Counted from the first letter of the stretch, positions 1 through 16,377 are shown. The stretch: 17,359 nucleotides of DNA from an uncultured Eubacteriales bacterium (GCA_964640345.1 CAZXFU010000005.1:1-17359); one strand, 5' to 3'. A program made the numbers and translations. The notes: generated by a model not told the origin, from the letters alone.

Positions 1-46
1 CAACCGGTTATGAGCCGGTAGCTCTAACCAACTGAGCTAAAGGCCC
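1..46 (-). tRNA. 5' portion of a tRNA with anticodon CAT (tRNA-Met, or lysidine-type tRNA-Ile2). The 3' part lies beyond the left edge of the window.
   Basis: The reverse complement of 1-46 reads GGGCCTT-TA-GCTC-AGTTGGTTA-GAGC-T-ACCGG-CTCATAA-CCGGT-TG. That gives a 7-nt acceptor arm, a canonical D-arm, and a 5-bp anticodon stem with a 7-nt loop CT-CAT-AA. Confidence 0.85.
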
Positions 47-190: not shown

Positions 191-1315
191 ATGAATTTTT
201 TGGATATAGCAGATGCAGTTTATTATAATGTCGGTGGAAAAGTTGACCTGACTAAAGAGGCTAAAGAAATTGTAGCACAACTAAAGAAAAGAAAAAAGAC
301 GATATTTATTTTAATTGACGGAATGGGGGCTTTGGTATTAAATAATCTCTTGCCTGATTCCTTCTTAAATAGCAAAGTGAAGGAAGTTGCAACAACAGTT
401 TTCCCGTCTACAACATCTGTAGTATTAACAGCTCTTGCAACAGGAAAATATCCGGCAACACACGCGGTTAACGGCTGGTTTAATTATATAGAAGAAACAG
501 ACGAATCAATAATTTCCTTACCGTTTATAAACCGATTTGATGCGAATGAAAAAGTAAAAATTAAATTGACAGATTTATTTTATTGTGAAACACGTATGCA
601 ACATATTCCATGCAGAGCTTCGATGATTGCTAATGCAGGTATTGTAAAATCGGAATATTCTATGTGGTCAAGAGGTAATACCAACGGACACGGATACAGA
701 ACATTAAAAGGTGCATTCCAGACGCTCTCCAGACTAATTAACAAAGATGATGAAGAAGAATATATATATTTATATATAGATGATTTTGATACTATTTGTC
801 ATAAATTTGGACCGGATAGTGAAGAAGCGAAGGCATTATTAAGTACGATAGATACTTTGGTTAAAAAGTATGCAACGAGATATAAAGATAAGGTAAATAC
901 AATAATTACCGCAGATCATGGGCAGGTTAGAATAAGGAATGAGAACTTCTTTACTATAAATAGTAAAGATAAGATGATGGAATTGTTAAAAGCTCCACCT
1001 TCTGGCGATTCACGTTGCACATGTTTTCATGTAAGAGATGGTAAAAAAGAAGAATTTGTGAAAATGTTTAATGAAAGATATGGTAAATATGCAAAGTTAT
1101 TGTCTCAGGAGGAAATTGACAAGGCTCATATACTTGGACCTGAGTCTATGTGTGAAAGAGCGAAGAGAAGGTTTGGAGATTTTTGTGCATTCTTTGATAA
1201 GGAATATGCATTTTTATATGTGAAAGATGATTTTGACAGAAATAAGTTAAAGAAAGGATGCCATAGCGGAAATTCTGAGGAGGAAATGAAAATCCCACTT
1301 ATAATAATAAATTAA
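191..1315 (+). CDS. Alkaline phosphatase superfamily protein (type I phosphodiesterase / nucleotide pyrophosphatase-like)
   Basis: 374-aa ORF with a purine-rich RBS (AGAGGGGAAG) 5-15 nt upstream of the ATG. Family motifs are FILIDGMG (metal-binding Asp), FPSTTSVVLTALATGKYPATHAVNGW (nucleophile Thr/Ser plus the TG..P..H..N pattern) and ITADHGQ (distal metal site). Confidence 0.8.
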   Translation: MNFLDIADAVYYNVGGKVDLTKEAKEIVAQLKKRKKTIFILIDGMGALVLNNLLPDSFLNSKVKEVATTVFPSTTSVVLTALATGKYPATHAVNGWFNYIEETDESIISLPFINRFDANEKVKIKLTDLFYCETRMQHIPCRASMIANAGIVKSEYSMWSRGNTNGHGYRTLKGAFQTLSRLINKDDEEEYIYLYIDDFDTICHKFGPDSEEAKALLSTIDTLVKKYATRYKDKVNTIITADHGQVRIRNENFFTINSKDKMMELLKAPPSGDSRCTCFHVRDGKKEEFVKMFNERYGKYAKLLSQEEIDKAHILGPESMCERAKRRFGDFCAFFDKEYAFLYVKDDFDRNKLKKGCHSGNSEEEMKIPLIIIN

Positions 1316-1345: not shown

Positions 1346-1374
1346 GGGGAGCTGTAAATAGCTCCCCTGTTTTT
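1346..1374. terminator. Bidirectional rho-independent terminator shared by the two convergent genes
   Basis: Perfect 8-bp stem GGGGAGCT (1346-1353) / AGCTCCCC (1360-1367) with loop GTAAAT. It is followed by TGTTTTT on the + strand and by TATTTTTGT on the - strand. The stop codon of the minus-strand gene (1373-1375) abuts it. Confidence 0.75.
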
Positions 1375-2782
1375 AAAGGCATTTTACCGCCTTTTTCCAG
1401 ACATTATAGTATGTCTGGGACATAAGCTCCGTGCTTAATGCACGGAACTCCTCTTTAGAACCTACCAAATACTGGTTGCAGATTCCAAAGAGGACGTTCA
1501 GTTCGAACTGATCGAACTGATAAGAAGTTGCTTTCTCCAGAAACCATTCAGCAAAAGTTTCCTCGTGCTGTGAACGGTTTGGATATCCTCCCTCCTTATA
1601 CGTTATCGTATAAGGAGAAGTCTTGCCAAAAAGATTTTCATTCATGAAATCTTTTTGGTAAAGCGAGGGAGTGGAGAAAACTCCCTGCTCTTCAATTTTG
1701 TTCCTGACTTCCAGGAACAACTGTCTTAGAGCTTTCGCTCTAGACAATGCATCGTCCGGGTTTTCGTAATTGGCAACCGACGATGCTTCGTAGAGGGCCT
1801 TTGCAAAGCCCTTGGGCTGCCACTCAAGTTCGCTTATTTTCGCGAACTTGTTCGTGGATGGAATTACTGCATTGTTTATGCAGTAAATAATATCAATTAC
1901 ATTGTCCAGACCTTCCGAGACAATGTCGTGTGCGTTCCAAGGTAGCCCTCGGATTACGCACTTCCGAACGGAATGTTCGGAGTACTTGTCGACTCTTGTG
2001 AAAAGCCGAGCAAGTTTTACAACGTTATCAGAAGAGTTTTTATCAGAAGAGGTTTTGGGATAACTTACTATAATTATTCCCTCCTTTGCTAACCTCTTCA
2101 TTACCTGAGCCCTCAGGTCTCGTATTGCTACGAGCTTTACCACAGGATTCTTGGTCTGGTAGCACTTCCCGAGCAACGTTGTGAAGTTTTCAGGTTTCCA
2201 GGAAAGCCGGGTACTACCAGAGACTCTCCACTTCAAATCCGGAGGGTATTCCCAATTAACGTAGAATACCCCTTCGGTGAGAAGCTTCACTACTTTTGCC
2301 AGTTTGATATTTCTATCAATCTGACCTTCCAACAAAGCTTCGTCATAAAGCTTGTTGGCCTTAGAGACGAGGTCTCTTATGCGTACGAGCCTATATGACG
2401 GACTCATCTCGCAATGAGACCTCAGCCAATCCCGAATTTGTCCGGGCTTTCGCTCGAACTTGATGCTTGTCGAGTAGGCATAGCCCTCTCGGCAAGCAGA
2501 ACTCCATTCCGATTCATCACTGATATCGAATCGGTAGAGGTCCACTTCAAGCCACCGGTCTCCCAGCAACTCGAAGTGCTTAAAGTTGTGCCAGGGGATA
2601 TAACCTGGCGTTGTTACTACTGTTAGATCCAAGTCACTAGACCAATCGGTCTCGTGACGCGGCTCGTCACTTAAGCCGCCGTGGACCATTATACCCAGGA
2701 CCTCCGGCTTTGCCTTCAAGGTCTCTATGAGTTGTGCCGCCCGACACATCATAGCAATCCTAGCTTCGATCATGTTCTTCAT
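1373..2782 (-). CDS. Pol-beta/MNT-type nucleotidyltransferase domain protein with two C-terminal helical domains; function unknown; compositionally foreign
   Basis: 469-aa ORF. The NTase signature is hG-G-x13-D-L-D-L (VHGGLSDEPRHETDWSSDLDLTVV, aa 33-56, nt 2627-2680), with a third acidic residue candidate in WLEVDLY (D81). The rest is predicted helical and resembles the KNTase_C / DUF4037 style domains found after such NTase folds. There is no Shine-Dalgarno directly upstream of the ATG at 2782. An in-frame ATG at 2752 (M11) has a weak AGGA 5 nt upstream and is an alternative start. Confidence 0.7.
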   Translation of the reverse strand: MKNMIEARIAMMCRAAQLIETLKAKPEVLGIMVHGGLSDEPRHETDWSSDLDLTVVTTPGYIPWHNFKHFELLGDRWLEVDLYRFDISDESEWSSACREGYAYSTSIKFERKPGQIRDWLRSHCEMSPSYRLVRIRDLVSKANKLYDEALLEGQIDRNIKLAKVVKLLTEGVFYVNWEYPPDLKWRVSGSTRLSWKPENFTTLLGKCYQTKNPVVKLVAIRDLRAQVMKRLAKEGIIIVSYPKTSSDKNSSDNVVKLARLFTRVDKYSEHSVRKCVIRGLPWNAHDIVSEGLDNVIDIIYCINNAVIPSTNKFAKISELEWQPKGFAKALYEASSVANYENPDDALSRAKALRQLFLEVRNKIEEQGVFSTPSLYQKDFMNENLFGKTSPYTITYKEGGYPNRSQHEETFAEWFLEKATSYQFDQFELNVLFGICNQYLVGSKEEFRALSTELMSQTYYNVWKKAVKCL

Positions 2783-3043: not shown

Positions 3044-3072
3044 TTGACTTTATTTGCTAAATGTAGGATAAT
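3044..3072 (+). promoter_or_regulatory. Candidate sigma-A promoter for the coupling-protein / topB / tex / dnaI gene string
   Basis: TTGACT (3044-3049), an exact 17-nt spacer, then GATAAT (3067-3072), about 25-40 nt upstream of the first possible start codons. Confidence 0.55.
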
Positions 3073-3095: not shown

Positions 3096-5600
3096 ATGAA
3101 AGGTGGAATAACCTTGTTTAAGAATATAAAAAATTGGTGGAGCGGAATAAAGAAAAAATACAACAAGCCTAGTTTCTTAACAAAACTTTTTTACGGGATG
3201 TCAATACTTGTTGTTTTAAATAGGATAATATCATTGATAATAGCGTTATCCGGGAAATGTATAGAGCTTACTTCGAAAGAGTTGTATCGTTCGTTGTTTT
3301 GGACGGCAGAGGAGTATACTCTTGCTATATTATTACCATTAGCCGGTTTTGCATATTTTTGCTCTTCTGAGTATGTAGCCAATACAGAAAATAAGGCTAA
3401 GGGTTATTTTATTACATACGGATTTATTGCGGCGATTGCCTTTGTGATGCTTGCACAGTGGTCAAACGAATTTATAATATTTTTAGCAAGTTATTATAAA
3501 AATGGTGAAATATTGAGAATAGGTCTTACCGAAGCACCGGATATTTTTAAGGAAGCGTTAGGATATGCAAGTTTATATATTCCTGTTTGTGCAATTGCAC
3601 TTACTCCGACGTCTGTTGCTTCATTGTTTGATGATAGTAATCCTATAAATAAATTAAAATCTCTTTCACTTATGCCTTCTAAACCCGGTACGAACGGTGT
3701 TGGAGAATGGGCTGCCGACGTTAGACTTTGCGATGATTTAAAAACCGGTGCACCTGTAATTATTTCTGAACCAAGGCGTATGGAAACTGTTTTAATACAG
3801 GGTGCGACAGGTACAGGTAAAACTTCAACGTTATTATTGCCTATGTGTGCAAGTGATTTAGAGAAGAAATATTTTTTTAGAGAAAAAGCAAAGGAATTAG
3901 CTTATAAAGCTTTGACAAGTGGCTGTGCATATATAAATGCACCTTATGATAACGAAACGTTAAACAAGTGTTTTACTCTGAATTTCTTACGCCCTATTTA
4001 CGGTAGAGAAAAGGATTTTATGGAAATTTTAAAACCGATGATAAAGTGCGAGGATAAAGAAAACAAAGAATTGGTTTTTAGGGATTTAGGTATTACGGTT
4101 TTGGAGCCTGACGGTAATTTTATTGACGATTTTAGATTAATTGCGGACAACTTAGGGATAATGGTTTACAAAATCGACCCACTTGATCCGAATTCTTTTG
4201 GCATAAATCCGTTTATAAATAAAAGCCCGGCAAAAGTTGCAAGTATTATTTCAACGGTTTTAAAAGGAATGTATGAAAGTGAAAATCCTGATTCTAGTAA
4301 CCTTTTCTTTGGCCAGGTTACTCAACAGGCATTAGAAAATCTTGCAATTTTATTAAAAGTTATGTATCCGAAGCTACATGATAACCAGATTCCCACACTT
4401 GAAGATATGCTTGAATGTTTATATAATTATAATCTTGTTGAGGATATGTGTGAGGAGTTAAAACGTGATCCTGTTTTATGTGAGAAGCATGCAATTTTAA
4501 TAAAATACTTTGAAAAGAATTTCTATAATCCGCCGCTTGATATTAACGGTAGACCTGTACTTGGTTCTATCGGAAGTAACAGAAAAGAAACAGAAACGTT
4601 CTTATATGGGGCCACGACTCAACTTGATAACCTAATAAGGAATAAGATGGTAAAGCGAATCTTATGCAGTAGGGATAACAATATCGACCTAGATAAGGTA
4701 TTGGCAGAAGGCGGTTGTGTTTCTGTTTGTACAAGACGTGGAGAGATTGGCGGACTTCTTGCTAAGCCGTTTGGTATGTTTTATATTCTTACAATGCAAG
4801 ATGCAGTCTTAAGAAGACCGGGAGATGAAAATACCAGAATACCTCATTTCTTATATATAGATGAGTTCCCTGATTTTGTAAATAAAGAAACAGAGACTTG
4901 TTTTACTTTGTTTAGAAAATATCGTTGCGGAATGACTATTGCAATTCAGAACTTATCTCAGCTTGAAAGAAATAAGTCAATGAAGTTTTATAAGCAGGTT
5001 GTTACGTCGAACAGTAAAACTGTTGCTGTTTTTGGCGATACCAATAAAGAAGACAGTGAATATTGGAGTAAAGCTTTTGGCAGACATGAGTATTGGGATA
5101 TCGGAAGCGGATGGAGTAGACCACCTTTATTTAATGTTAAGAATGAATCCGAGAATGCTGAAGGTATAAGCATGAAAGTATCGTTTACAGAAAATATAAA
5201 ACCTTTCCATTTAGCCGAGATGCCGTTTAGAACAGTATATTATAAGACAAGAGATGCTAAAGGAAGCGTTGCTTTTGGTAAAGGTACAACTGATTTTATA
5301 GATAAAAGATTTTTAAAGAAGTATGAGCAAAAAGAATATGACTTTAGAATGTTTGTAAATTACAATCCGGAAGATACTACATTAAGAGAAACACCTATAG
5401 TAAAAGAAGTCGCTTCAGGCGATATCGAAACAAACGAAGTTTTAGACGGTACAAATTCTATAGAAATTGCAAAGCAAATAGAAGAAGAAAGAAAAGAATT
5501 ATTTAAGCTTACACAGGCAAATCCGGAAATTGCTAATATTATTATTGATGAACCGGAAGTTGTTGATGACGTAAAGATAGAAATAGAGAAAAATATATAA
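3096..5600 (+). CDS. Membrane-anchored type IV coupling protein-like ATPase (VirD4/TraG/TraD family), paralog 1
   Basis: 834-aa ORF. Motifs are Walker A LIQGATGTGKTS (nt 3801-3827), T4CP-type LEPDG and INPF motifs, Walker B HFLYIDEFPDF (around nt 4851), and the TraG-D_C-like AIQNLSQL...VFGDTN. About 4 hydrophobic helices lie in the first ~190 aa. The ATG at 3096 has no RBS. An in-frame TTG at 3114 is preceded by AAAGGTGGA (3099-3107) and may be the real start. Confidence 0.75.
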   Translation: MKGGITLFKNIKNWWSGIKKKYNKPSFLTKLFYGMSILVVLNRIISLIIALSGKCIELTSKELYRSLFWTAEEYTLAILLPLAGFAYFCSSEYVANTENKAKGYFITYGFIAAIAFVMLAQWSNEFIIFLASYYKNGEILRIGLTEAPDIFKEALGYASLYIPVCAIALTPTSVASLFDDSNPINKLKSLSLMPSKPGTNGVGEWAADVRLCDDLKTGAPVIISEPRRMETVLIQGATGTGKTSTLLLPMCASDLEKKYFFREKAKELAYKALTSGCAYINAPYDNETLNKCFTLNFLRPIYGREKDFMEILKPMIKCEDKENKELVFRDLGITVLEPDGNFIDDFRLIADNLGIMVYKIDPLDPNSFGINPFINKSPAKVASIISTVLKGMYESENPDSSNLFFGQVTQQALENLAILLKVMYPKLHDNQIPTLEDMLECLYNYNLVEDMCEELKRDPVLCEKHAILIKYFEKNFYNPPLDINGRPVLGSIGSNRKETETFLYGATTQLDNLIRNKMVKRILCSRDNNIDLDKVLAEGGCVSVCTRRGEIGGLLAKPFGMFYILTMQDAVLRRPGDENTRIPHFLYIDEFPDFVNKETETCFTLFRKYRCGMTIAIQNLSQLERNKSMKFYKQVVTSNSKTVAVFGDTNKEDSEYWSKAFGRHEYWDIGSGWSRPPLFNVKNESENAEGISMKVSFTENIKPFHLAEMPFRTVYYKTRDAKGSVAFGKGTTDFIDKRFLKKYEQKEYDFRMFVNYNPEDTTLRETPIVKEVASGDIETNEVLDGTNSIEIAKQIEEERKELFKLTQANPEIANIIIDEPEVVDDVKIEIEKNI

Positions 5601-5614
5601 TTGGCGGTGAAGAA

Positions 5615-8002
5615 ATGTCGGAAATTATTAATAAAACAAGAAAGTTAATGAGAAATGAAGATTTAATGTGCAAACTTTTTTATGGCATGACTACATTAGT
5701 AATATTAAATAGACTTTTATCATTTTTGATAATGATTTTCTTCTCTGATTACAGCCAAATTTCTTCATCTATGGGGCATTCAAATGTTTTAGCATCATTA
5801 TTTTCTTTAGTAACAAAGTCGCCTGTAAAGCAGTTTGAAATGTGGAATTCTTTTGAATATACAATGGCTATTTTACTACCGTTAGCAGGATATGCGTTTT
5901 TCTGTTCGTCAAGCTATGCAAAAAATCGTACTAGGAAAATAAAGATGTTTTCTGTTACGATGATGTTGGTTTCTATAATCGGATCATTTATGTTAGCAGA
6001 ATGGTCGAATTCTTTGGTTTGTTATATTATTTCATTTGCAGGAGAAGAAAGAATTAAAGAGGCTTGGTCACTTGCACCGGATAAGATGATTGCAGCGATT
6101 CGTGCTGCTACGATTTATTTACCTGTGCAGGCTATGTGTTTAACAAGTGGAATGATTTCTATAGCAGTATATGGACCGGATTCGGAAGATCAGATTATAA
6201 ATTTGAAAATTTTAGATTTTACGCCAAACGCTATGCCAACAGGTAAATATACTTGTGAAGTTACTGTTTGTCGTGATTCTGGTACCGGCGAGTGGATAAC
6301 AATACCTGAAAATAGACGAATGGAAGCAACGTTAATTCAAGGTGCGACCGGTACAGGTAAAACGTCTATGTTATTATTACCGATGTGTGCTAGCGATTTA
6401 GAAAAGAAATTTTTCTTTCAGGAAGAGTTAAAGAAGTTAGCAATTGAAGCGTTAGATAAAGGATATGCTTATATTGATGCACCATTTTCAAGTGAAGAAC
6501 TTAATGAGCATTTTTCGATGGAATATATCAAACCTCGTCAAAATATGGAAAAGGAGTTTTTGGGTGTATTTAAAAATATGACTAGATATGTCGGAACAAT
6601 GGACGACACAAGAATTTATAAAAACCTTGGCGTTACGGTAGTTGAGCCTGACGGAAAGTTTTGCGGTGATTTTCAGGAAGTCGCTAAAAATTACGGAATT
6701 GAGGTAAAGAAGATTGACCCTGAGGCACCGGATACTTATGGTATGAATCCTTTCCAAAATGAAGATCCGGATAAAGCAGCGAGCATTATTGCAACTGTTT
6801 TGCAAGGAATGTATGAAAGTGAAAATCCAGGCGGGAATAACGTGTTTTTTGGGCAGGTTACACAGCAGGCATTAGAGAATTTGGCACTGCTATTAAAAGT
6901 AATGTATCCAAGGCTTCATGACGGTGAATTGCCTACGCTTGAGGATATGTTAAAGATGATGTATGACTACAACATCGTAGAAAAAATGTGTGAGGAAATG
7001 AAGAAAATTCCGGAGCTTGCAGAAGAGTATAGAATTTTAATTAAATATTTTGAAAAGAATTTCTATAATCCGCCGTACGATTTAAATGGTCGTCCGATTC
7101 CGGGAACTTTCGGTAGCGGAAGAAAAGAAACAGAGAAATTCTTATATGGTGCTGCAACTCAATTAGACAACTTAATGAGGCATGAAAAGGTTAAAGAGAT
7201 TTTATGTTCTAGGGATAGAAATTTGGACTTCGATAAGGTTTTATCTGAAGGGCAATGTGTTTCGGTTTGCACAAGACGTGGTGAACTTGGTGCATTACTT
7301 TCAAAGCCTCTTGGAATGTTCTTTATATTGTCTATGCAAGATGCTGTTTTAAGAAGACCGGGTAATGAAAAGACGAGAATACCACATTTCTTATATATAG
7401 ATGAATTCCCGGATTTTGTAAACAGTGAAACAGAAACATGCTTTACATTGTTTAGAAAGTATCGTTGCGGCATGATCGTTGCAATTCAGAACTTGTCACA
7501 ACTTGCAAGAACCGAATCTATGAAATATTATAAACAAGTTGTTGTTTCCAACTCGAGAACTCATTTGGTTTTCGGTAATACGAATGTTGAAGATAGTGAT
7601 TACTGGTCCGGAGTTTTCGGAAGACGTGAAGTTATGAACTTAAGTTATAAGCTGGAAACTGCTCCACTTAGCCAGGTAAAGAGTGATTCGACTGGTATCA
7701 AAGCTGATAGTATGAATGGCGTTATGGATTATACGGATAATATAAAGCCTCATGTACTTAACCAGTTAGCTTTTAAAGCTTTATTTTATAATACACGTGA
7801 TGCAAAAGGAAATAGGAAAAGAGGAAAAGCAAAAGTTGATTTCTTAAATGCTCGTCACAAAAAGATGCATGAAGGAGCAAAATATGATTTTTCAAAGTAT
7901 TTATCATATCGTCGTACTTCGCTTAATGACGGCTATTGGAGTGACAGCATTTCTGAGCAGGAATACAGAGAAAGTAGAATTTTAGACGGAGAAAAAAATT
8001 AG
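5615..8002 (+). CDS. Membrane-anchored type IV coupling protein-like ATPase (VirD4/TraG/TraD family), paralog 2
   Basis: 795-aa ORF that begins 14 nt after paralog 1, with RBS GGTGAAG. It carries the same motif set: LIQGATGTGKTS (nt 6341-6367), VEPDG, MNPF, HFLYIDEFPDF, AIQNLSQL and VFGNTN. It aligns with paralog 1 over the whole length, including the N-terminal membrane domain (KLFYGM..LV.LNR, EYT.AILLPLAG.A.FCSS, A.WSN). Confidence 0.75.
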   Translation: MSEIINKTRKLMRNEDLMCKLFYGMTTLVILNRLLSFLIMIFFSDYSQISSSMGHSNVLASLFSLVTKSPVKQFEMWNSFEYTMAILLPLAGYAFFCSSSYAKNRTRKIKMFSVTMMLVSIIGSFMLAEWSNSLVCYIISFAGEERIKEAWSLAPDKMIAAIRAATIYLPVQAMCLTSGMISIAVYGPDSEDQIINLKILDFTPNAMPTGKYTCEVTVCRDSGTGEWITIPENRRMEATLIQGATGTGKTSMLLLPMCASDLEKKFFFQEELKKLAIEALDKGYAYIDAPFSSEELNEHFSMEYIKPRQNMEKEFLGVFKNMTRYVGTMDDTRIYKNLGVTVVEPDGKFCGDFQEVAKNYGIEVKKIDPEAPDTYGMNPFQNEDPDKAASIIATVLQGMYESENPGGNNVFFGQVTQQALENLALLLKVMYPRLHDGELPTLEDMLKMMYDYNIVEKMCEEMKKIPELAEEYRILIKYFEKNFYNPPYDLNGRPIPGTFGSGRKETEKFLYGAATQLDNLMRHEKVKEILCSRDRNLDFDKVLSEGQCVSVCTRRGELGALLSKPLGMFFILSMQDAVLRRPGNEKTRIPHFLYIDEFPDFVNSETETCFTLFRKYRCGMIVAIQNLSQLARTESMKYYKQVVVSNSRTHLVFGNTNVEDSDYWSGVFGRREVMNLSYKLETAPLSQVKSDSTGIKADSMNGVMDYTDNIKPHVLNQLAFKALFYNTRDAKGNRKRGKAKVDFLNARHKKMHEGAKYDFSKYLSYRRTSLNDGYWSDSISEQEYRESRILDGEKN

Positions 8003-8006
8003 AGAT

Positions 8007-9944
8007 ATGGGAAAAAGTTTGTTTATAGCTGAAAAACCAAGTGTTGCGAAAGAGTTTGCCAAGATTTTAAAGGTAAACTCTTCTTCGCGTGATGGGTATA
8101 TTGAGAATGAAAATTATGTTATTACATGGTGTGTTGGTCATCTTGTTACTATGAGCTATCCGGAAGTGTATGACGAGAATTTAAAAAAGTGGTCACTTAG
8201 CACTTTACCTTTTTTGCCGGAGAATTATAAGTACGAGGTTATATCCTCTGTTGAAAAGCAGTTTAATATAGTAAAAGGATTACTTACAAGAGATGATGTT
8301 GAAACGATATATGTGTGTACCGACTCCGGGCGTGAGGGAGAATATATTTATAGGTTAGTAGATTCTATGGCTCACGTTGAAGGTAAGAATAAGAAAAGAG
8401 TTTGGATAGATTCACAGACTGAAGAAGAGATATTAAGAGGAATTCGTGAGGCAAAGAATTTAAATGAGTATGATGCTTTGGCGGATGCTGCGTATTTAAG
8501 AGCTAAAGAGGACTATTTGATAGGTATAAATTTCTCAAGGCTTCTTAGTTTACTTTATTCACGTTCCGTCAGTGTCTTTAGTAAGGAAGAACGTGTTGTT
8601 ATCGCTATTGGTCGTGTTATGACATGTGTTTTGGGAATGGTTGTAGATCGTGAACGAGAGATTAGAAATTTTGTTAAGACAAACTTTTATAGGTTAGTCT
8701 GCAATTTAGAGGGAAATTGTTCGGGGGAATGGAAAGCTATAGAGAATACCAAGTTTTACAATTCTCCGCTTTTATATAATGAAACAGGTTTTAAGAAAAA
8801 GGAAGATGCTCAAAACCTTGCAAATGTTTTAAGTGAGAATGAAACAGCAGTTGTTGAAGAGATAAAGAAAAAACAGCAAAAGGAAAATGCACCTTTACTT
8901 TTTAATTTGGCAGAGCTTCAAAACGAATGCTCAAAGCGTTTTAAGATTGCACCTGATGAGACTTTGGCTGTTGTTCAGACGTTATATGAAAAGAAGCTTG
9001 TTACATATCCAAGAACTGATGCAAGGGTTCTTTCTACGGCTATTGCTAAGGAGATAAAGAAGAATTTAAACGGGATTGCAACAAGGTGCTTAGACGAGAA
9101 TGTAAAGAAATTTGCAATGAATATTGCTGAGAGAAAGTATAATATTGATTTGGTAAAGTCAAAGTATGTTGATGATTCTAAAATTACAGATCACTATGCG
9201 ATTATTCCGACCGGTCAGGGATATGAAAATTATAATTCGTTAAAAGAACTTGAAAAGGCAATATATAATGTGATTTCCCTTAGATTTTTAGCGGTTTTTT
9301 ATCCGCCTGCTGTTTTTAACAGAATTTCGCTTACTGTAAAAATCGGTGAAGAGTATTTTTTTGCCAGTGCAAAAACTTGTAAGGATATTGGGTATTTAGA
9401 AGTGCTAAAAAGCGGTAAAGATGCAGATAGTGATGAGAGTGCGTTAAGTGGCTTAAAGAAAGGTCAACAATTAAAGATAAATAATATTGAGGTAAAAGAA
9501 GGAGAAACAAGTCCACCGAGCCGTTATACAACCGGTACAATGATTTTGGCAATGGAAAATGCCGGAAAGCTTATTGAAGACGAGGAATTAAGGTCACATA
9601 TTAAGGGTGCGGGAATCGGAACGAGTGCAACCAGGGCTGAAATTATAAAGAAGCTTGAAAGAAATTCATATATTATTTGTAATTCTAAAACTCAGGTAAT
9701 AACGCCAAGTTTTAAAGGCGAGTTAATATATGAGACTGTAAAAGATGCTATGCCGGATATGCTAAACCCTGAACTTACGGCAAGTTGGGAAAAAGGGCTT
9801 ACAATGGTGGCAAATAAAGAGATAGAAGCAAAAGTTTTTATGGATAAATTAGAGGCGTATATACGAAATAAGACTAAGAGAGCAATTGAAAAAAAGCCGT
9901 ATATTAATCCGCCAAGAATGTTTAAGGATGTGCCGAAGATATAA
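8007..9944 (+). CDS. topB: DNA topoisomerase III (type IA)
   Basis: 645-aa ORF. The N-terminal Toprim reads LFIAEKPSVAKEFAKIL with the catalytic Glu. The Firmicute TopB-style motif is CTDSGREGE. The active-site Tyr motif is LVTYPRTDARVL (around nt 9000-9030). It starts 4 nt after the upstream stop. Confidence 0.9.
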   Translation: MGKSLFIAEKPSVAKEFAKILKVNSSSRDGYIENENYVITWCVGHLVTMSYPEVYDENLKKWSLSTLPFLPENYKYEVISSVEKQFNIVKGLLTRDDVETIYVCTDSGREGEYIYRLVDSMAHVEGKNKKRVWIDSQTEEEILRGIREAKNLNEYDALADAAYLRAKEDYLIGINFSRLLSLLYSRSVSVFSKEERVVIAIGRVMTCVLGMVVDREREIRNFVKTNFYRLVCNLEGNCSGEWKAIENTKFYNSPLLYNETGFKKKEDAQNLANVLSENETAVVEEIKKKQQKENAPLLFNLAELQNECSKRFKIAPDETLAVVQTLYEKKLVTYPRTDARVLSTAIAKEIKKNLNGIATRCLDENVKKFAMNIAERKYNIDLVKSKYVDDSKITDHYAIIPTGQGYENYNSLKELEKAIYNVISLRFLAVFYPPAVFNRISLTVKIGEEYFFASAKTCKDIGYLEVLKSGKDADSDESALSGLKKGQQLKINNIEVKEGETSPPSRYTTGTMILAMENAGKLIEDEELRSHIKGAGIGTSATRAEIIKKLERNSYIICNSKTQVITPSFKGELIYETVKDAMPDMLNPELTASWEKGLTMVANKEIEAKVFMDKLEAYIRNKTKRAIEKKPYINPPRMFKDVPKI

Positions 9945-10007
9945 ATTATTTGCAAACAATATATAAAAGTGATATTGTGAATGATGTTAGAAAGGAGCAT
10001 TCAGAGT

Positions 10008-10883
10008 ATGATAGATTTTACGAATACAACGGAAGAACTTAATAATTATAAAGGCTCTGAGAAGAAAAAAACCTTAAGATATGAGGGTAAAAAATATCTA
10101 GTTAAATTCCCAGATCCGATAAGAGAGAAAAATAAGAATATATCATATATAAATAATGCCTTTTCTGAGTATGTCGGTAGTAATGTGTTTAGAATTTTGG
10201 GATTTGAGACGCAAAATACAATTTTAGGTCAATATGAATACAATGGGAAAAAGAAAATTGTTTGTGCATGTGAGGATTTTACTGATGCTGATAATGTATT
10301 ATATGAATTTGAAAGTTTAGTTTTAAGTGCAAACCCAGATAAAAAAATTGAGACTGAAGTAAGTGATATTATGGAAGTGCTAAAAGAGTGTGCTAATTTA
10401 ATAGATTTTCCGTCAACAGTTCAGAAATTTTGGGATATGTTTATTGTTGATGCACTTATAGGAAACACGGATAGGCATAACGGTAATTGGGGCTTTTTGC
10501 TTAATAAACAAACTGGCGAAACTAGATTTGCACCTATATATGATTGTGGTTCTTGTCTAAATCCTATGATTGATGATGAAGAGCTGCTTAATATAAGTGA
10601 GACAGAATTTAAGAATTTTGCTGTAAATTGTTATTCATGTTTGAAAGAAAATAATAAAAAAATTAATTATATTACATACATAAATAGTATGAAAAATAGT
10701 GAGTGCAATAGTGCTTTGATTAGAATTTATAAGGATATTAAAATTGATGATATTGATAATTTCATAAAAAATATAGAAGGCATGTCTGAAATTAGGAAGA
10801 ATTTTTACATGAGAATTATTAGAAAGAGATACGAGATGTTGAGTCATGTTTATAATAAATTGTGCGAAATGAAGGGAGAATAA
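10008..10883 (+). CDS. Short HipA-like Ser/Thr kinase (HipA_C domain only)
   Basis: The ORF is open from 9981 (300 aa), but the ATG at 10008 follows the RBS AAAGGAG (9991-9997) and is the better start (291 aa). The HipA catalytic motif is LIGNTDRHNGNWGFL (around nt 10461-10493), followed by the APIYDCGS (DxG-like) motif. Confidence 0.75.
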   Translation: MIDFTNTTEELNNYKGSEKKKTLRYEGKKYLVKFPDPIREKNKNISYINNAFSEYVGSNVFRILGFETQNTILGQYEYNGKKKIVCACEDFTDADNVLYEFESLVLSANPDKKIETEVSDIMEVLKECANLIDFPSTVQKFWDMFIVDALIGNTDRHNGNWGFLLNKQTGETRFAPIYDCGSCLNPMIDDEELLNISETEFKNFAVNCYSCLKENNKKINYITYINSMKNSECNSALIRIYKDIKIDDIDNFIKNIEGMSEIRKNFYMRIIRKRYEMLSHVYNKLCEMKGE

Positions 10884-10884
10884 T

Positions 10885-13038
10885 ATGGATTTTATACAAG
10901 AACAATTAAAAAATGAGTTTAATTTAAAGGATTTTCAAGTAAAAAATACTGTAGAGTTAATTGATGGCGGAAATACTATTCCTTTTATTGCACGTTATAG
11001 AAAGGAAATGACAGGAGAACTTAGTGACGAGGTTTTAAGAGATTTTTATGAAAGATTACTGTATCTTAGGAAGCGTGAAGAACGCAAAGAAGAGATTATG
11101 CGTTTAATTGACGAACAGGGAAAGATGACAGAAGATTTACAAAAGCAGATTGAAAAAGCTGAGACTATGACTGAGCTTGAGGATTTGTATAGACCATATA
11201 AGCAGAAAAAGAGGACAAGAGCTACCATTGCTAAGGAAAAAGGTTTAGAGCCTCTTGCTGTTATTATAAAGAAGCAGGAAATGATGTCGGGAGATAGAAG
11301 TTTAGTTGCAAGTGAGTTTATAAACGATGAAAAAGGTGTAAAGAGTGCAGAAGATGCAATTTCCGGTGCATTAGATATTATTGCTGAAGAAATTTCAGAT
11401 AATGCGGATTATCGTAAAGAAATAAGAAAGATAACTTTTGAAAACGGCATTTTTACTTCTAAGGGTACGAATCCGGATGAGAAGACAGTATATGATATGT
11501 ATTATGATTTTGCTGAGCCTATTTCAAAGATACCTAGTCATAGGGTTTTGGCTATAAATCGCGGAGAAAAGGAAGGTGCGTTAAAGGCAAAGCTTGAGAT
11601 TGATACTGACGGCATATTAGCTTATCTTGAAAAAGATGTTATAAAAGGAGATAGCATTTTTAAAGATGATTTAAAGTTATGTGTTTTAGATGCGTATAAG
11701 AGGTTAATTGCACCTTCTATTGAGAATGAGCTTAGAAATGATATTACAGAAGTTGCGGATGAGAAGGCTATTAAGGTCTTTGGTGTTAACATCAAAAATT
11801 TACTTTTGCAAGCACCGCTTAAAAATATGACTGTTATGGGGTTTGATCCTGCATATAGGACAGGTTGTAAGATTGCGATTATCGATGAGACCGGTAAGCT
11901 ACTTGCTACTACTACAGTTTATCCTACTATGCCTCAAAATGATGTTGACGGAGCAAAGAGGGAGTTAAAAGCATTAATTAAAAAGTATAATGTTAATATG
12001 ATTGCGATAGGAAACGGAACTGCTTCAAGGGAGTCTGAGCAGTTTGTTGCGGATATGATAAAAGAAATACCGGAAAGCACTTATTATACTATTGTTAGTG
12101 AAGCAGGAGCTTCTGTATATTCTGCATCAAAGCTTGCGACAGAAGAATATCCGGATATAAACGTTTCGCTTCGCGGTGCTATTTCTATTGCAAGGCGTCT
12201 CCAAGATCCGCTTGCCGAGCTTGTTAAGATTGATCCTAAAAGCATTGGTGTAGGTCAGTACCAACATGATGTTAATCAGAAAAAGCTTGATGAGGCGTTA
12301 ACGGGTGTTGTTGAAGATGCGGTTAATAAGGTTGGCGTTAATTTAAATACCGCAACTCCGTCATTACTTAATTATGTTTCAGGTTTAAGCAAGACCGTTG
12401 CTTCTAATATTGTTAAGTACAGAGAGGAAAAAGGTAAGTTTAAAAACAGAAAGGAATTACTTAACGTAAGTAAGTTAGGACCTGCGGCATTTACACAATG
12501 TTCCGGATTTTTAAGGATACCCGGCGGGGATAATCCTTTAGATAATACTTCTGTTCATCCTGAATCTTATGATATTGCAAAGAAGATTTTAGAGAAGATG
12601 GGTTATGATGTTAAGAATTTTGAAAATGTTGATAAGAATGAGATGATTAGAAAAATAAAAGCTATTAACATTAGTGAATTAGCTAGTGAGTTAAATGTCG
12701 GGGTACCTACTGTTACGGATATATTAAATGAACTTCAAAAACCTGGACGTGATCCTAGAGAAGACATGCCGAAACCTATTTTAAGAAGTGATGTTCTAAA
12801 ACTTGAAGATTTAAAAGAAGGTATGGTATTAAAGGGAACTGTAAGAAATGTTATTGATTTTGGAGCGTTTGTGGATATTGGTATAAAAAATGACGGTTTG
12901 GTACATATTTCAGAGATGAGCAATAATTATGTTAAAAATCCTATGGATGTTGTGTCTGTTGGAGATATAGTTGATGTCAGAGTTATAAAAATTGATATGG
13001 ATAAAGGAAAAGTAGGGCTTAGCATGAAAGATTTATAG
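10885..13038 (+). CDS. tex: Tex-like transcription accessory protein (YqgF/RuvX-like, HhH and C-terminal S1 domains)
   Basis: 717-aa ORF with RBS AAGGGAGA. The N-terminus FIARYRKEMTGELSDEVLR is typical of Tex. Other marks are the central GFDPAYRTGCK (YqgF-like) segment, IGVGQYQHDV, and the C-terminal S1 segment GMVLKGTVRNVIDFGAFVDIG...GLVHISE. It starts 1 nt after the HipA-like stop codon. Confidence 0.9.
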   Translation: MDFIQEQLKNEFNLKDFQVKNTVELIDGGNTIPFIARYRKEMTGELSDEVLRDFYERLLYLRKREERKEEIMRLIDEQGKMTEDLQKQIEKAETMTELEDLYRPYKQKKRTRATIAKEKGLEPLAVIIKKQEMMSGDRSLVASEFINDEKGVKSAEDAISGALDIIAEEISDNADYRKEIRKITFENGIFTSKGTNPDEKTVYDMYYDFAEPISKIPSHRVLAINRGEKEGALKAKLEIDTDGILAYLEKDVIKGDSIFKDDLKLCVLDAYKRLIAPSIENELRNDITEVADEKAIKVFGVNIKNLLLQAPLKNMTVMGFDPAYRTGCKIAIIDETGKLLATTTVYPTMPQNDVDGAKRELKALIKKYNVNMIAIGNGTASRESEQFVADMIKEIPESTYYTIVSEAGASVYSASKLATEEYPDINVSLRGAISIARRLQDPLAELVKIDPKSIGVGQYQHDVNQKKLDEALTGVVEDAVNKVGVNLNTATPSLLNYVSGLSKTVASNIVKYREEKGKFKNRKELLNVSKLGPAAFTQCSGFLRIPGGDNPLDNTSVHPESYDIAKKILEKMGYDVKNFENVDKNEMIRKIKAINISELASELNVGVPTVTDILNELQKPGRDPREDMPKPILRSDVLKLEDLKEGMVLKGTVRNVIDFGAFVDIGIKNDGLVHISEMSNNYVKNPMDVVSVGDIVDVRVIKIDMDKGKVGLSMKDL

Positions 13039-13053
13039 GAACGGAGAATTAAT

Positions 13054-14019
13054 ATGAAGATAGAGAGAAACGCATCACTGCTTTTGGGAGATACGGCAGT
13101 TTCAGATATATTTATTAATGATTATTTGATGGCGGCTGAAGGCGATTTTGTTAAGGTTTATTTGTATTGCCTTTTCTTATCTAAGCATAATAAAGATATT
13201 ACGCTACTTGATTTATCTAAAAAGACAGGTTTGCAACTAGAAAGAGTTAAAGCGGCAGTTGAGTATTTTAACAAATCCGGCTTGTCTGTTGCAACAGAGC
13301 GTGGCATTATATTATGTGATTTGAAGGAAAAAGAGATAAATAGGTTATATACGCCAAAGCTTTCTACTTCTCCGGAAGATGCTGTAGATAAGCTTAATAG
13401 AAATAGAAAGCGCTCTTCTGTTATAAATGCGATAAATAATACTTTTTTTCAAGGAATTATGAGTCCTGCATGGTATAATGACATTGCAACTATTTTTGAT
13501 AAGTATAATTTTGAAGAAGAGGTTGTTTTTTCGTTGTTTAATTATTGCTATGATAAAAGAGCTTTGCACAAGAATTATTTGTTTGCGGTAGCGGAGGCAT
13601 GGGCACTTAATAAGATTCACAATACCGGTGATTTAGATGCTTATTATCAAAAATATGAAAAGTCTAATAAACTCAAAAAAACCGTTAGTAAGAAGCTTGG
13701 GATTACAAGAAAGCTTACTGAGTATGAGGAAGCGTATGTAGATAAATGGTGTATGGAATTTGGTTATGATATTGATGTTATTGAAATTGCACTAAAGAAA
13801 ACTACTTCTAAGACCAACCCAAGTTTTGAGTATATAAACAAGATTATTTGCTCATGGGCAGAAAAAGGTCTTAAGTCAAAAGAACAAGTTTCAGAATTTT
13901 TAGAGCAAACTAAGACTAAGAACGAGTTTATAAAGAATAATAAAAATGTGGTAAGTAATGCTTATGTTAATCCTGAGCAGAAAGAATTTAATGATTTGGA
14001 TCGTTTTTATGCAAATTAA
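13054..14019 (+). CDS. DnaD-domain replication initiation / membrane attachment protein (Firmicute DnaB-like: winged-helix N-domain plus two DnaB_2/DDBH2 repeats)
   Basis: 321-aa ORF with RBS ACGGAGA. Two repeats match the pattern hydrophobic-x-Y..K..W...G: FEEEVVFSLFNYCYDK...YLFAVAEAWALNKIHNTGDL and DIDVIEIALKKT...FEYINKIICSWAEKGLKSKEQV. It sits immediately upstream of a DnaI-like gene, as in the Bacillus dnaB-dnaI operon. Confidence 0.7.
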   Translation: MKIERNASLLLGDTAVSDIFINDYLMAAEGDFVKVYLYCLFLSKHNKDITLLDLSKKTGLQLERVKAAVEYFNKSGLSVATERGIILCDLKEKEINRLYTPKLSTSPEDAVDKLNRNRKRSSVINAINNTFFQGIMSPAWYNDIATIFDKYNFEEEVVFSLFNYCYDKRALHKNYLFAVAEAWALNKIHNTGDLDAYYQKYEKSNKLKKTVSKKLGITRKLTEYEEAYVDKWCMEFGYDIDVIEIALKKTTSKTNPSFEYINKIICSWAEKGLKSKEQVSEFLEQTKTKNEFIKNNKNVVSNAYVNPEQKEFNDLDRFYAN

Positions 14020-14034
14020 TAGTGAGGTGGTTAT

Positions 14035-15051
14035 ATGCAGAGTGTTTACAGGCGTATTCAGCAGGAGTATGAAAAGGATAGGAATTCGGCTTTGGCTGAA
14101 GTGGAAAAGAAGAAAAAGGAGATTTATGAAAAAGAGCCCAGAGTTTTAGAAATTGATGAGAAGATAAAGAAAATCGGGATGGAGATTAGTAAATCTATTA
14201 TTTTTATTGATGATGACACTAAACGTGAAAATGCAGTAAGAGACCTTAATTCGCAAATTGATGAGCTAAAAAATGAAAAAGGTAAATTACTTAGTAGCAT
14301 GGAGATTGACGAAGAGTATTTAGTACCGAATTTTAGATGCAAAATATGTGAAGATACAGGTATTGTAGGCAGTGTGACCGGAGCGAAAAATTGCTCTTGT
14401 TTTAGGCAGAAGCTTATTGATTATACGTATAATCAATCTCAGATATATAATATAGATAAAGAAAATTTTGATGCGTTTGATGAAAGTATTTTTTCTGATA
14501 TGGTTGATGAAAAGGCGTATAACAGTCAAAAATCTCCGCGAGAAAATATTCTCCTTATAAAGGATATTGCCACTAAGTTTGTAGAGGGTTTTGATGATGT
14601 AGATACTAAAAATCTTTTATTTACAGGCGGAACAGGACTCGGAAAGACTTTTTTAAGCAATTGTATTGCAAAAGCTATGTTAGACAAAGGGAAAACAGTT
14701 TTGTATCAAACATCCGGTCGGCTTATGGACTTAGTTATGGACTATCGTAAAGGAGATAGTGAAAATTTTGATGCTTCGCAATATGAGGAACTGTTTAATG
14801 TTGATCTTTTAATTATTGATGACCTTGGAACTGAGAACATGACTGAAGCAAGACGCTCAGAGCTATTTAACATACTAAATACAAGGTTGTTAAATTCTGC
14901 TAAAAAGCATACGAAAACAGTTATTTCCACAAATAAAGATTTAAAAGAGTTGGTTAATTATTATGATCAAAGGATTGTTTCCAGAATTTTGGGAAATTTT
15001 GAGATATGCAGATTTTTCGGTAGAGATTTAAGATTATCTAACAGAAAGTAA
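14035..15051 (+). CDS. dnaI: Primosomal helicase loader DnaI/DnaC-like AAA+ ATPase
   Basis: 338-aa ORF with RBS GAGGTGG. The N-terminal zinc module is CKICEDTG...CSC. Walker A is FTGGTGLGKTFL, Walker B is LLIIDDLGTE, and the sensor region is VISTN. Confidence 0.8.
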   Translation: MQSVYRRIQQEYEKDRNSALAEVEKKKKEIYEKEPRVLEIDEKIKKIGMEISKSIIFIDDDTKRENAVRDLNSQIDELKNEKGKLLSSMEIDEEYLVPNFRCKICEDTGIVGSVTGAKNCSCFRQKLIDYTYNQSQIYNIDKENFDAFDESIFSDMVDEKAYNSQKSPRENILLIKDIATKFVEGFDDVDTKNLLFTGGTGLGKTFLSNCIAKAMLDKGKTVLYQTSGRLMDLVMDYRKGDSENFDASQYEELFNVDLLIIDDLGTENMTEARRSELFNILNTRLLNSAKKHTKTVISTNKDLKELVNYYDQRIVSRILGNFEICRFFGRDLRLSNRK

Positions 15052-15120
15052 CAAAAGATGTACGATAATAATATTATGTTAATGCAGGGTAAGGATTTTT
15101 GTTTACAAGGGCATTGACTA

Positions 15121-15178
15121 AAAAGCTATTGCTAAAATGTTGTCGGGTTGCCCGTTTTAGTAATAGCTTTTATCTTTA
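15121..15178 (+). terminator. Long AT-rich hairpin with a T-rich tail; likely the terminator of the upstream gene string
   Basis: The 17-nt arms AAAAGCTATTGCTAAAA (15121-15137) and TTTTAGTAATAGCTTTT (15155-15171) pair with one G-T wobble. They enclose an inner CGGG-TTG-CCCG hairpin (15144-15154). The structure is followed by ATCTTT. Confidence 0.45.
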
Positions 15179-15210
15179 CTCTAAATTAAGTAGGTTGAAG
15201 GGTGAAAATA

Positions 15211-16377
15211 ATGATTATTGTACAAAAATATGGAGGAAGTTCTGTAGCAGATAATAAAAAACTATATATGGTAGCAGAAAAAATAAAAAGGACTGTCCGG
15301 GAAGGAGCTAGCGTTGTCGTTGTTGTTTCCGCACAAGGGAAAACCACAGATGTACTTATTGACAAGGCACATTCTATAGAAAAAGAATGTTCTAAGCGTG
15401 AGCTTGATGTACTTTTAGCTACAGGAGAACAACAGTCTATGGCACTTCTTGCAATGACACTTAATAAAATTGGTGTGCCTGCGGTTTCACTTACCGGTGA
15501 ACAAGCAGGGATTTATACTATTGGAAGCCATACAAACGCCAGAATAGAAGATATTCGCCCTTTTAGAATTTTTAACGAATTGGAAAAGGGGAATGTAGTT
15601 GTAGTTGCAGGCTTTCAGGGCGTAGATGAGGAAAATGATATAAATACTTTAGGAAGAGGGGGCTCTGATACGACCGCGATTGCCTTAGCACATGCACTTT
15701 TAGCTGAAAGATGTGACATATATAGCGATGTTGACGGAATATATACGGCAGATCCAAGGATTGTAAAAAATGCTATGAGATTAGATGAAATAAGTTATGA
15801 TACTATGTTGGAGTTGGCAAGTTTAGGTGCTAAAGTGCTTAATAGCAGGGCTGTTGAACTTGCAAAGAAGTACGAGGTTAATCTTACTTCTGGTGGAAGT
15901 TTTTGTGACAGGGAGGGAACTAAAATAGTTAGAAATGGATTAGAAAGTGCTAATGTTACCGGCTTTACTGCAGATAGGGGAGTGGCAATAGTTACTATTT
16001 TTAATGTAGAAAATGAATACGATATTTTTTCTAAGCTTTTAGACAGACAAATCCAACTTGATGTTATTGGTCAAAGCATAGGATTAAAAGAGGTTTCTTT
16101 TACTGTTAAATCAGATAGTATCGAAACCGTAAGAGAGTGTATCGGAGACAAATATGATATCAATATTTGTGACAATTGCGGTAAAGTTTCAGCAGTTGGA
16201 AGCGGAATGCTAAATAAACCTGAAATGGCAAAATGTATATATGAGGCACTTTATGAAAATAATATCCCGATTAAGCTTATAAGCAGTTCGGAAATAAAGT
16301 TTTCCGTTATTGTTGATGTCGAATATGTGGATACTGCGTTGAATGCCATGCATAATAGGATTTTTAATTTGTCCTAA
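15211..16377 (+). CDS. Aspartate kinase (monofunctional, with C-terminal ACT domains)
   Basis: The ORF is open from the GTG at 15202, but the ATG at 15211 follows GAAGGGTGA and gives the canonical N-terminus MIIVQKYGGSSV. Other motifs are VVVVSAQG, LGRGGSDTTA and DVDGIYTADPRIV. Confidence 0.9.
   Translation: MIIVQKYGGSSVADNKKLYMVAEKIKRTVREGASVVVVVSAQGKTTDVLIDKAHSIEKECSKRELDVLLATGEQQSMALLAMTLNKIGVPAVSLTGEQAGIYTIGSHTNARIEDIRPFRIFNELEKGNVVVVAGFQGVDEENDINTLGRGGSDTTAIALAHALLAERCDIYSDVDGIYTADPRIVKNAMRLDEISYDTMLELASLGAKVLNSRAVELAKKYEVNLTSGGSFCDREGTKIVRNGLESANVTGFTADRGVAIVTIFNVENEYDIFSKLLDRQIQLDVIGQSIGLKEVSFTVKSDSIETVRECIGDKYDINICDNCGKVSAVGSGMLNKPEMAKCIYEALYENNIPIKLISSSEIKFSVIVDVEYVDTALNAMHNRIFNLS

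Follow-up and report, generated by a model that had tools for sequence, protein, structure and literature searches.

Type IV coupling proteins (T4CPs) act as hexamers that hand relaxase-bound DNA to the channel of a type IV secretion system (T4SS), and in F-like systems the acidic C-terminal tail of TraD contacts the relaxosome. The T4CP TrwB is held in the membrane by an anchor of two helices and about 70 residues, and MobB of CloDF13 by an enlarged one of three helices and about 150 residues; MobB and its relaxase MobC (class MOBC1) have no T4SS of their own and use one encoded elsewhere (PMC7431656). Throughout the Patescibacteria the chromosome encodes a T4SS that is akin to monoderm conjugation systems and has VirB2-like pilins; there t4cp usually lies far from virB4, a distance reported as not uncommon, each genome has about two T4CP homologues, and the most frequent relaxase class, MOBC, is often encoded next to t4cp (PMC12102498). 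In C. perfringens, the Pcp locus of pCP13 encodes a monoderm T4SS with the VirD4-like PcpD4 and a topoisomerase III gene (PMC8941779). The subject of this report is a stretch of 17,359 nt from an uncultured Eubacteriales bacterium (GCA_964640345.1 CAZXFU010000005.1:1-17359), hereafter the window, in which two adjacent genes encode divergent but genuine VirD4/TraG-type coupling proteins, termed paralogs A and B (Table 1). We lean, with some reserve, towards the view that the pair is the ATPase, here duplicated, that receives the substrate for a monoderm-type T4SS which is fixed in the chromosome and has its other parts encoded elsewhere.

The two genes lie on the same strand, separated by 14 nt, and their products, which a first-pass annotation of the window had described as alignable from end to end, are indeed 51% identical over 787 residues (BLASTP, E = 0). 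The duplication can be detected in the DNA as well, where 4486-4785 matches 7026-7325 at 73%. Motif searches confirmed that each copy has an intact Walker A (GATGTGKT), Walker B (LYIDEFPDF) and Q..SQL motif (QNLSQL), as had been claimed; both Walker motifs are invariant in 68 members of the family, as are the Q, N, L, Q and L of QNLSQL. The shared N-terminal domain of about 190 residues with some four hydrophobic helices, also noted at first reading, was recovered both by hydropathy (segments 31-49, 76-94, 103-128 and 160-178 in A; 25-43, 84-102, 109-139 and 167-185 in B) and by AlphaFold2, which predicts helices at 25-51, 71-90, 97-146 and 148-176 in A and at 15-43, 79-98, 105-140 and 155-186 in B. 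The models have a predicted local distance difference test score (pLDDT) of 76.7 for A and 79.4 for B, the latter with a pTM of 0.70. Polar and proline residues are conserved within the membrane helices of the family, and the positive-inside rule suggests that both ends of the anchor are cytoplasmic. Behind the anchor come a TrwB-like nucleotide-binding domain, into which an all-alpha domain is inserted, and a small C-terminal beta domain.

Against Pfam, A reached 32.7 bits with TraG-D_C (cutoff 22) and 27.1 with T4SS-DNA_transf (cutoff 20.1), and its 17.9 bits with TrwB_AAD_bind lay under the cutoff of 20.5; B exceeded the cutoffs of all three families (T4SS-DNA_transf 35, TrwB_AAD_bind 33 and TraG-D_C 30.9 bits). 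The AlphaFold2 models contain the TrwB-like fold, composed of a RecA-like nucleotide-binding domain and an all-alpha domain. The best Foldseek matches of A were Cagbeta (4e-11) and TrwB (2e-10), and those of B were Cagbeta (1e-11), TrwB (1e-10, with TM 0.66-0.71 normalised to TrwB) and DotL (1e-6). These three proteins account for the top 38 matches (E 1e-11 to 1e-6) and rank, for both models, above VirB4, HerA and DndH. Because the Pfam gathering thresholds were passed and the Foldseek ranking agrees with them, A and B are assigned to the VirD4 type, and the T4CP-like character first proposed for them is upheld: profile and fold searches alike point to T4CPs and not to another ATPase family. 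An FtsK/SpoIIIE identity in place of this one was rejected for want of support from sequence or fold, as FtsK_SpoIIIE gave no Pfam match for either protein at E <= 0.01 and no FtsK structure occurred among the significant Foldseek matches, the FtsK-like EccC appearing only at E = 0.014. A search of the PDB by sequence with the family profile found nothing at E <= 1.

With the VirD4-type T4CPs (TrwB of R388, Cagbeta of H. pylori, DotL of Legionella, TraD of F) the pair shares Pfam families, Walker motifs, fold and an N-terminal anchor, and the acidic C-terminal tail of A has its counterpart in TraD. There are also differences: identity to solved T4CP structures is only 13-15%, four membrane helices over about 190 residues stand in place of the shorter TrwB anchor, an extra helical/beta insert follows Walker A, and, unlike the classical proteins, A and B are chromosomal, vertically inherited and in tandem, with no T4SS gene nearby. 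The closest annotated relatives of B are the T4CPs of the clostridial plasmids pFWSKR40E1 of C. botulinum (WP_172688299) and CloBei18h p1 of C. beijerinckii (WP_264647377), at 30-33% identity in alignments covering 77-82% of B. The four-helix N-terminal domain is present in the C. beijerinckii protein as well, and both plasmids carry a DUF87-annotated gene near the T4CP, that of C. botulinum with weak DUF87/AAA_10 Pfam matches. These plasmid proteins differ from A and B in being longer (924-1001 aa), in having a GSSGSGKT Walker A, and in adjoining recombinases without synteny with core genes.

Two other candidates for kinship were rejected. CloDF13 MobB is not a close relative, its hhalign match (E = 0.011) being confined to the surroundings of Walker B, and it serves as an analogy, from a small proteobacterial plasmid and in single copy. 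Membership of the PcpD4/CD1115 family likewise failed, as PcpD4 gave no significant BLASTP match with B, and against the NCBIfam model conju_CD1115 A scored 25.7 bits with a cutoff of 250 and B had no match. The pCP13 locus does illustrate that a clostridial T4SS locus can hold a topoisomerase III; the window TopB differs from it in being of the chromosomal type.

A homologue search yielded 532 relatives, and a scan of one genome per species gave 80 loci, all from uncultured gut metagenome-assembled genomes (MAGs) of Clostridia/Bacillota, save two labelled Ignavibacteriales (L002/L018, JBLNBO010000022.1) and Deltaproteobacteria (L005/L020, JBLMYQ010000034.1). The contigs of these two MAGs hold SpoVT, the pth-mfd arrangement and T4CP, VirB4 and MOBC proteins of Clostridia type, and their labels are probably wrong. 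In a survey of 89 loci by open reading frame (ORF) calling and phmmer, the T4CP gene was single-copy in about 70, and the tandem pair occurred only in the window, L001 and L007-L016, to which L095 and L096 were added later; a metagenome scan with B returned only a copy of L010 and no further tandem-clade contexts. The pth gene was nearby in 69 of the 89 loci, in 65 of them on the opposite strand and with a median gap of 153 bp, with L21, L27, Obg and TrpRS further upstream, and even a more divergent family member (P0122) has the pth arrangement. Pairwise T4CP identity is correlated with the corresponding identities of Obg (r = 0.92) and of Pth (r = 0.86), with mean identities of 0.64 for T4CP and 0.66 for Obg. 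Because of the synteny with pth, the co-divergence with Obg and Pth and the rarity of integrase-like ORFs (3 of the 89 loci), the T4CP family is regarded as a strongly constrained chromosomal gene that is vertically inherited and is not the edge of an integrative conjugative element (ICE). The idea of a domesticated protein, put forward in the first-pass annotation, is borne out to this extent.

That the window might nevertheless be the edge or remnant of an integrative conjugative or mobilizable element is very unlikely. T4CP genes are typical of ICEs and of integrative mobilizable elements (IMEs), the ORF upstream of the pair (1373-2782) has a foreign-looking guanine-plus-cytosine (GC) content of 0.46 compared with 0.33-0.35 in its neighbours, and a partial tRNA lies at 1-46. 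Against this stand the co-divergence just described, the scarcity of integrase-like ORFs, none of which lies in the window, and the nature of the downstream genes (tex, dnaD, dnaI and aspartokinase). The tandem pair is, moreover, kept in at least 8 species-level genomes with differing flanks. A T4SS or relaxase set just outside the window, which would have marked it as one end of such an element, was sought in L095, a sister genome with 90-94% DNA identity to the window: the 10 kb to the left and to the right of the pair contained only housekeeping or unrelated genes, and none for a T4SS, a relaxase or an integrase.

Evidence for the partners of these proteins comes from related genomes. In 23 loci belonging to three clades, a MOBC-like protein of 313-318 aa and an S1-domain protein are encoded just downstream of the T4CP, on the opposite strand. 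This Replic_Relax and two-S1-domain pair is found at L002:13058-14851 (-), L091:12979-14774 (-) and 21 other loci, and also on the C. beijerinckii plasmid (L089:6464-8267), where the homologues match at E 1e-21 and 1e-24. The MOBC-like protein is named replication-relaxation family protein by NCBI; the Pfam family concerned, PF13814, is listed as the MOBC relaxase class (PMC5357655, Table 1) and has been placed in the PD-(D/E)XK fold (PMC3424549). The divergence of the MOBC-like protein runs parallel to that of the T4CP (r = 0.93), and its mean identity is 67%, compared with 53% for the T4CP in the same genomes.

In one assembly (GCA_041687355.1, contig JAWLCD010000004.1), a region of about 32 kb between secA and pth-mfd holds T4SS genes together with the T4CP. 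It contains T4SS_pilin genes, a TraC-like ORF matching the N-terminal part of VirB4, a VirB4-like ATPase (NCBIfam CD1110, 1e-60), a second VirB4-like gene, a TrbL_3-like protein of 903 aa, a Glucosaminidase+M23 hydrolase, polA, the S1 gene, the MOBC-like gene and a single-copy T4CP that lies about 20 kb from the VirB4/T4SS operon. On this contig (L104:7286-21368 with L091), VirB4 is split into the TraC-like N-terminal ORF and the ATPase ORF, and the two VirB4 paralogs, 52% identical, face each other. Counterparts of the pilin, TraC-like, VirB4-like and large downstream genes are present in two further assemblies (L100-L102; L103), at separate chromosomal loci flanked by housekeeping genes, and the VirB4 family of the operon is large and tightly conserved, with 489 matches, among them a group of 102 clusters more than 60% mutually identical. 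When plasmid-derived and chromosomal T4SS queries were compared with all loci, matches occurred only in L091 and L100-L104; at every other locus the 10 kb around the coupling gene were free of T4SS genes. The first-pass annotation had found no T4SS partners for the pair; locally, in the window and within 10 kb of the tandem loci, this stands, and among relatives it does not, given the MOBC-like/S1 neighbours and the one full T4SS. Nor is its further step, from missing partners to an undescribed non-conjugative system, supported, as the relatives have these same neighbours and T4SS operons at separate loci. In their chromosomal location, the VirB2-like pilins, the separation of t4cp from virB4, the presence of two T4CPs and the position of MOBC beside t4cp, these Clostridia resemble the Patescibacteria when the two are set side by side by description; the Patescibacteria differ in belonging to another phylum, in that most of their clusters are without a relaxase, and in that they are not known to have a tandem A/B pair of which one copy has lost its tail.

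Several points weigh against assigning the pair to a T4SS encoded elsewhere. The Replic_Relax match of the MOBC-like protein is borderline (E ~1e-5, at the cutoff), and the protein is far more conserved than a typical relaxase. Only one genome has T4CP and T4SS on the same contig, and no T4SS, MOBC-like or S1 gene occurs within 10 kb of the pair in any of the tandem-clade loci searched (the window, L001, L007-L016, L095 and L096), where the synteny with pth has been lost and contexts vary. The presence of a T4SS and a relaxase in the genome of the window is presumed by extrapolation from other clades, and we infer the oligomeric state, the ATPase activity, the substrate and the interaction of A with B.

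The same observations give room to another explanation, in essence that of the first-pass annotation and improbable but to be reckoned with, in which the pair is an exapted, T4SS-independent membrane translocase whose four-helix domain forms its own conduit, possibly in a mixed A/B ring, and which would act with a co-transcribed topoisomerase III on chromosomal DNA in export, import or segregation, with Streptomyces TraB and FtsK/SpoIIIE as analogues. The empty surroundings of the tandem-clade loci, the housekeeping-level conservation and the conserved polar and proline residues of the membrane helices fit this proposal, and in the Patescibacteria t4cp is non-essential while other T4SS genes are essential, so that exaptation is possible there (PMC12102498). 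Its topoisomerase component derives from topB, which starts 4 nt after the B stop; the A-B-topB junctions of 2-4 nt are kept in the window, L010 and L095, topB is also adjacent in L001, and it is near in L013 and in the single-copy locus L061. The gene is probably co-transcribed with the pair; a functional link is suggestive at best. The gene is not at the pair in half of the tandem-clade loci (L007/L008, L011/L012 and L016), and the nearest relatives of the window TopB are ordinary chromosomal-type TopB proteins (47-55% identity), on which two counts topB was rejected as an obligate partner. The constant company of topB and the HipA-like gene, raised as a possibility in the first-pass annotation, thus does not hold, topB being missing in several tandem loci and the HipA-like gene deleted in L095. 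Besides topB, the lack of any FtsK-like signal in Pfam or Foldseek argues against an exapted translocase, as do the sister-clade orthologues, which adjoin the MOBC-like protein and in one case lie near a full T4SS. Finally, the four-helix domain is no mark of independence from a T4SS, because it is common to a plasmid relative located near a DUF87-annotated gene.

In a neighbour-joining tree, bootstrap values were 97 for A, 100 for B and 100 for A+B; each of these groups thus forms a supported clade, and the duplication took place once. Nonsynonymous divergence (dN) is far under synonymous divergence (dS) in both copies, with dN/dS mostly ~0.05-0.09, ratios that are approximate as dS is saturated, and of the 181 positions whose conservation among the single-copy relatives reaches 95% or more, 88% are kept in A and likewise in B. 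Judged from these sequence comparisons, both copies are under strong purifying selection; neither is decaying, in agreement with the first reading, and asymmetric decay of one paralog was rejected. Identity between A and B falls to 33% in the membrane domain and 33% in the C-terminal beta domain, and reaches 72% in the all-alpha domain and 80% in the second half of the nucleotide-binding domain.

The tails of the two paralogs had at first been taken to carry opposite charges. The acidic tail of A is real (last 90 residues, net -13), with pLDDT <50 at 763-785 and 818-834, and its DD[VIF]x[IV]E motif is shared by 9 of 10 A orthologues as well as by many of the single-copy proteins. The supposed basic tail of B, by contrast, is a conserved patch within the folded C-terminal beta domain, in a region where AlphaFold places strands at 722-728 and 734-740 and where the charge averages +4.5 in single-copy members, +5.2 in B orthologues and +2.8 in A orthologues. 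The true tail of B has 44 residues and a net charge of -2, with acidic residues continuing beyond the YRRTS sequence. Single-copy proteins have acidic tails of about 110 residues (mean -12.8) with the motif DD[FIV]x[IV][EDI], A orthologues have a tail of 85 residues (-12) that ends in the DD motif, and B orthologues have one of 38 residues (-2) without it; the ancestral tail, long, acidic and with the DD[VIF]x[IV]E motif, thus persists in A and has been lost from B. Single-copy tails often carry a second motif, GGAITExYExPxIK, near the extreme C-terminus and after the DDFEII motif (e.g., L035:9833-12328 and L026:9839-12388); it is absent from A and B and is probably a second partner-docking site. 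The family is a divergent and chromosomally fixed subfamily of four-helix T4CPs, here in tandem and with the putative docking tail lost in one copy.

By analogy with TrwB, VirD4 and TraD, A and B would oligomerise at the membrane, hydrolyse nucleoside triphosphates, recruit a nucleoprotein or protein substrate and hand it to a T4SS channel. If the channel is as in the relatives, it would be of monoderm type, with VirB2-like pilins, a split VirB4, a VirB6-like protein and a cell-wall hydrolase. The ancestral substrate processor was likely the MOBC-class (Replic_Relax, PD-(D/E)XK) protein together with the S1 OB-fold protein, and the long acidic tail with its short conserved motifs is the likely docking site for this partner. 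After one duplication in the lineage of the window, A would have kept the docking tail and B lost it, with divergence concentrated in the membrane and C-terminal domains. This pattern would suit either a ring in which A and B are mixed or two receptors that serve different partners; a heteromer of A and B, as first suggested, is plausible. The translational coupling of topB downstream of B is compatible with DNA as the substrate. The T4SS and relaxase genes of this genome presumably lie outside the window.

A bolder extension, which we hold to be doubtful, is that the whole conjugation-type apparatus (VirB2-like pilins, split VirB4, VirB6-like protein, hydrolase, MOBC-like nuclease, S1 protein and four-helix T4CP) has been domesticated as a core, vertically inherited function in a large clade of uncultured gut Clostridia, perhaps for routine export or exchange of chromosomal DNA, and that in the sub-lineage of the window A and B form an obligate hetero-oligomer with a docking tail only on A, co-expressed with topoisomerase III.

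Should the pair indeed serve a chromosomal T4SS, a conjugation-type secretion system would be a conserved chromosomal trait, and not a mobile element, in a broad group of uncultured gut Clostridia, with a coupling protein that evolves as slowly as Obg and a relaxase-like partner that is slower still. It would be the second lineage-fixed monoderm T4SS after that of the Patescibacteria, here with the relaxase-like gene retained, and would prompt one to ask what is secreted or exchanged by these gut bacteria; ICE/IME finders would wrongly call these genes mobilizable elements or orphan T4CPs. With its putative docking tail on one copy only, the A/B pair constitutes a natural experiment on the specialisation of coupling-protein subunits.

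In two MAGs, the single-copy T4CP gene is immediately preceded by a complete Tad/Flp pilus operon (L002:627-9902 and L005:928-9908). One of the operon genes (L002:7187-8413) encodes a 408-aa TadE-like pseudopilin fused to a CDI_toxin_EC869-like domain of restriction-endonuclease fold, and a nuclease-tipped minor pilin beside a DNA-transfer module is unusual. A Tad/Flp link as a trait of the family was rejected, as L091 and L092 of the same clade and all other loci are without a Tad operon; the arrangement is local.

The window has 10 large ORFs, 9 of which were scanned against Pfam and 6 of these also against NCBIfam. Among these 9 ORFs no relaxase, VirB4, cell-wall hydrolase or integrase family was matched, and no conspicuous oriT-like inverted repeat was found in the window, in accordance with the first reading of the sequence. 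The sigma-70-like match upstream of A is a pattern only, the regional count of such sites not being above shuffled expectation. A counterpart of the ORF without family assignment (465 aa) is kept upstream of the pair in L095.

Table 1. Features of the window, with the two coupling-protein paralogs and their neighbours.
Feature	Position	Strand	Residues or size	Basis or remark
Alkaline-phosphatase-like protein	191-1315			Pfam/NCBIfam scan
ORF without family assignment	1373-2782	-	469 aa	Only a weak Polbeta nucleotidyltransferase match, E 0.006
Sigma-70-like promoter match TTGACT-17-GATAAT	3044..3072	+		24 nt upstream of A; consensus scan 10/12
Paralog A, VirD4-type coupling ATPase	3096..5600	+	834 aa	Four-helix membrane domain, acidic C-tail
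N-terminal membrane domain of A	3096..3665	+	aa 1-190	Four helices
Walker A of A	3801..3824	+	aa 236-243	Motif search
Walker B of A	4851..4877	+	aa 586-594	Motif search; DNA repeated at 7391
QNLSQL of A	4947..4964	+	aa 618-623	Motif search
Acidic low-confidence tail of A	5328..5597	+	aa 745-834	Charge count; ends in DDVKIE
Paralog B, VirD4-type coupling ATPase	5615..8002	+	795 aa	Same architecture, shortened tail
N-terminal membrane domain of B	5615..6184	+	aa 1-190	Four helices
Walker A of B	6341..6364	+	aa 243-250	Motif search
Walker B of B	7391..7417	+	aa 593-601	Motif search and DNA repeat
QNLSQL of B	7487..7504	+	aa 625-630	Motif search
Basic patch of B	7784..7918	+	aa 724-768	Net +10; in folded domain, not tail
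topB, topoisomerase III	8007..9944	+	645 aa	Pfam Topoisom_bac 1e-101; NCBIfam topB
HipA_C-like protein	9981-10883	+		Pfam/NCBIfam scan
tex	10885-13038	+		Pfam/NCBIfam scan
dnaD/dnaB_2	13054-14019	+		Pfam/NCBIfam scan
dnaI	14035-15051	+		Pfam/NCBIfam scan
Aspartokinase	15202-16377	+		Precomputed Pfam matches of an orthologue

The HipA_C-like gene has a low GC content (0.283) and strongly matches PDC-M03A (1e-36), a candidate system of PADLOC. The body of the gene (window 9994-10815) has been cleanly deleted in L095, where the first ~13 codons and the last ~70 nt remain; because of this deletion the gene is considered dispensable and not tied to the T4CP pair. The PADLOC match, together with weak matches of the paralogs to mad8 (E 1e-7 to 1e-8, 27 and 32 bits) and the lower-ranked Foldseek hits to DndH-C and SIR2-HerA, might point to an anti-phage defence or conflict system built on a HerA/FtsK-superfamily ATPase, with the HipA-like kinase as a part. 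This is highly improbable, as the mad8 matches are weak and for A confined to the P-loop region (aa 219-247), HerA and DndH rank at least 5 orders of E-value behind the T4CP structures, A, B and topB remain in L095 where the hipA-like gene body does not, and the single-copy, syntenic and Obg-like conservation across the clade is unlike that of defence islands.

At the edge of the window a partial tRNA was detected (1-46, minus strand; Rfam RF00005, 31.9 bits), cut at its 3' end and without an ARAGORN call. From 3096 to 16377, nine consecutive genes occupy the plus strand, and the junctions between them are short or overlap; over this whole segment the GC skew is strongly positive and the cumulative skew rises monotonically, a pattern consistent with a leading-strand segment of the core genome.

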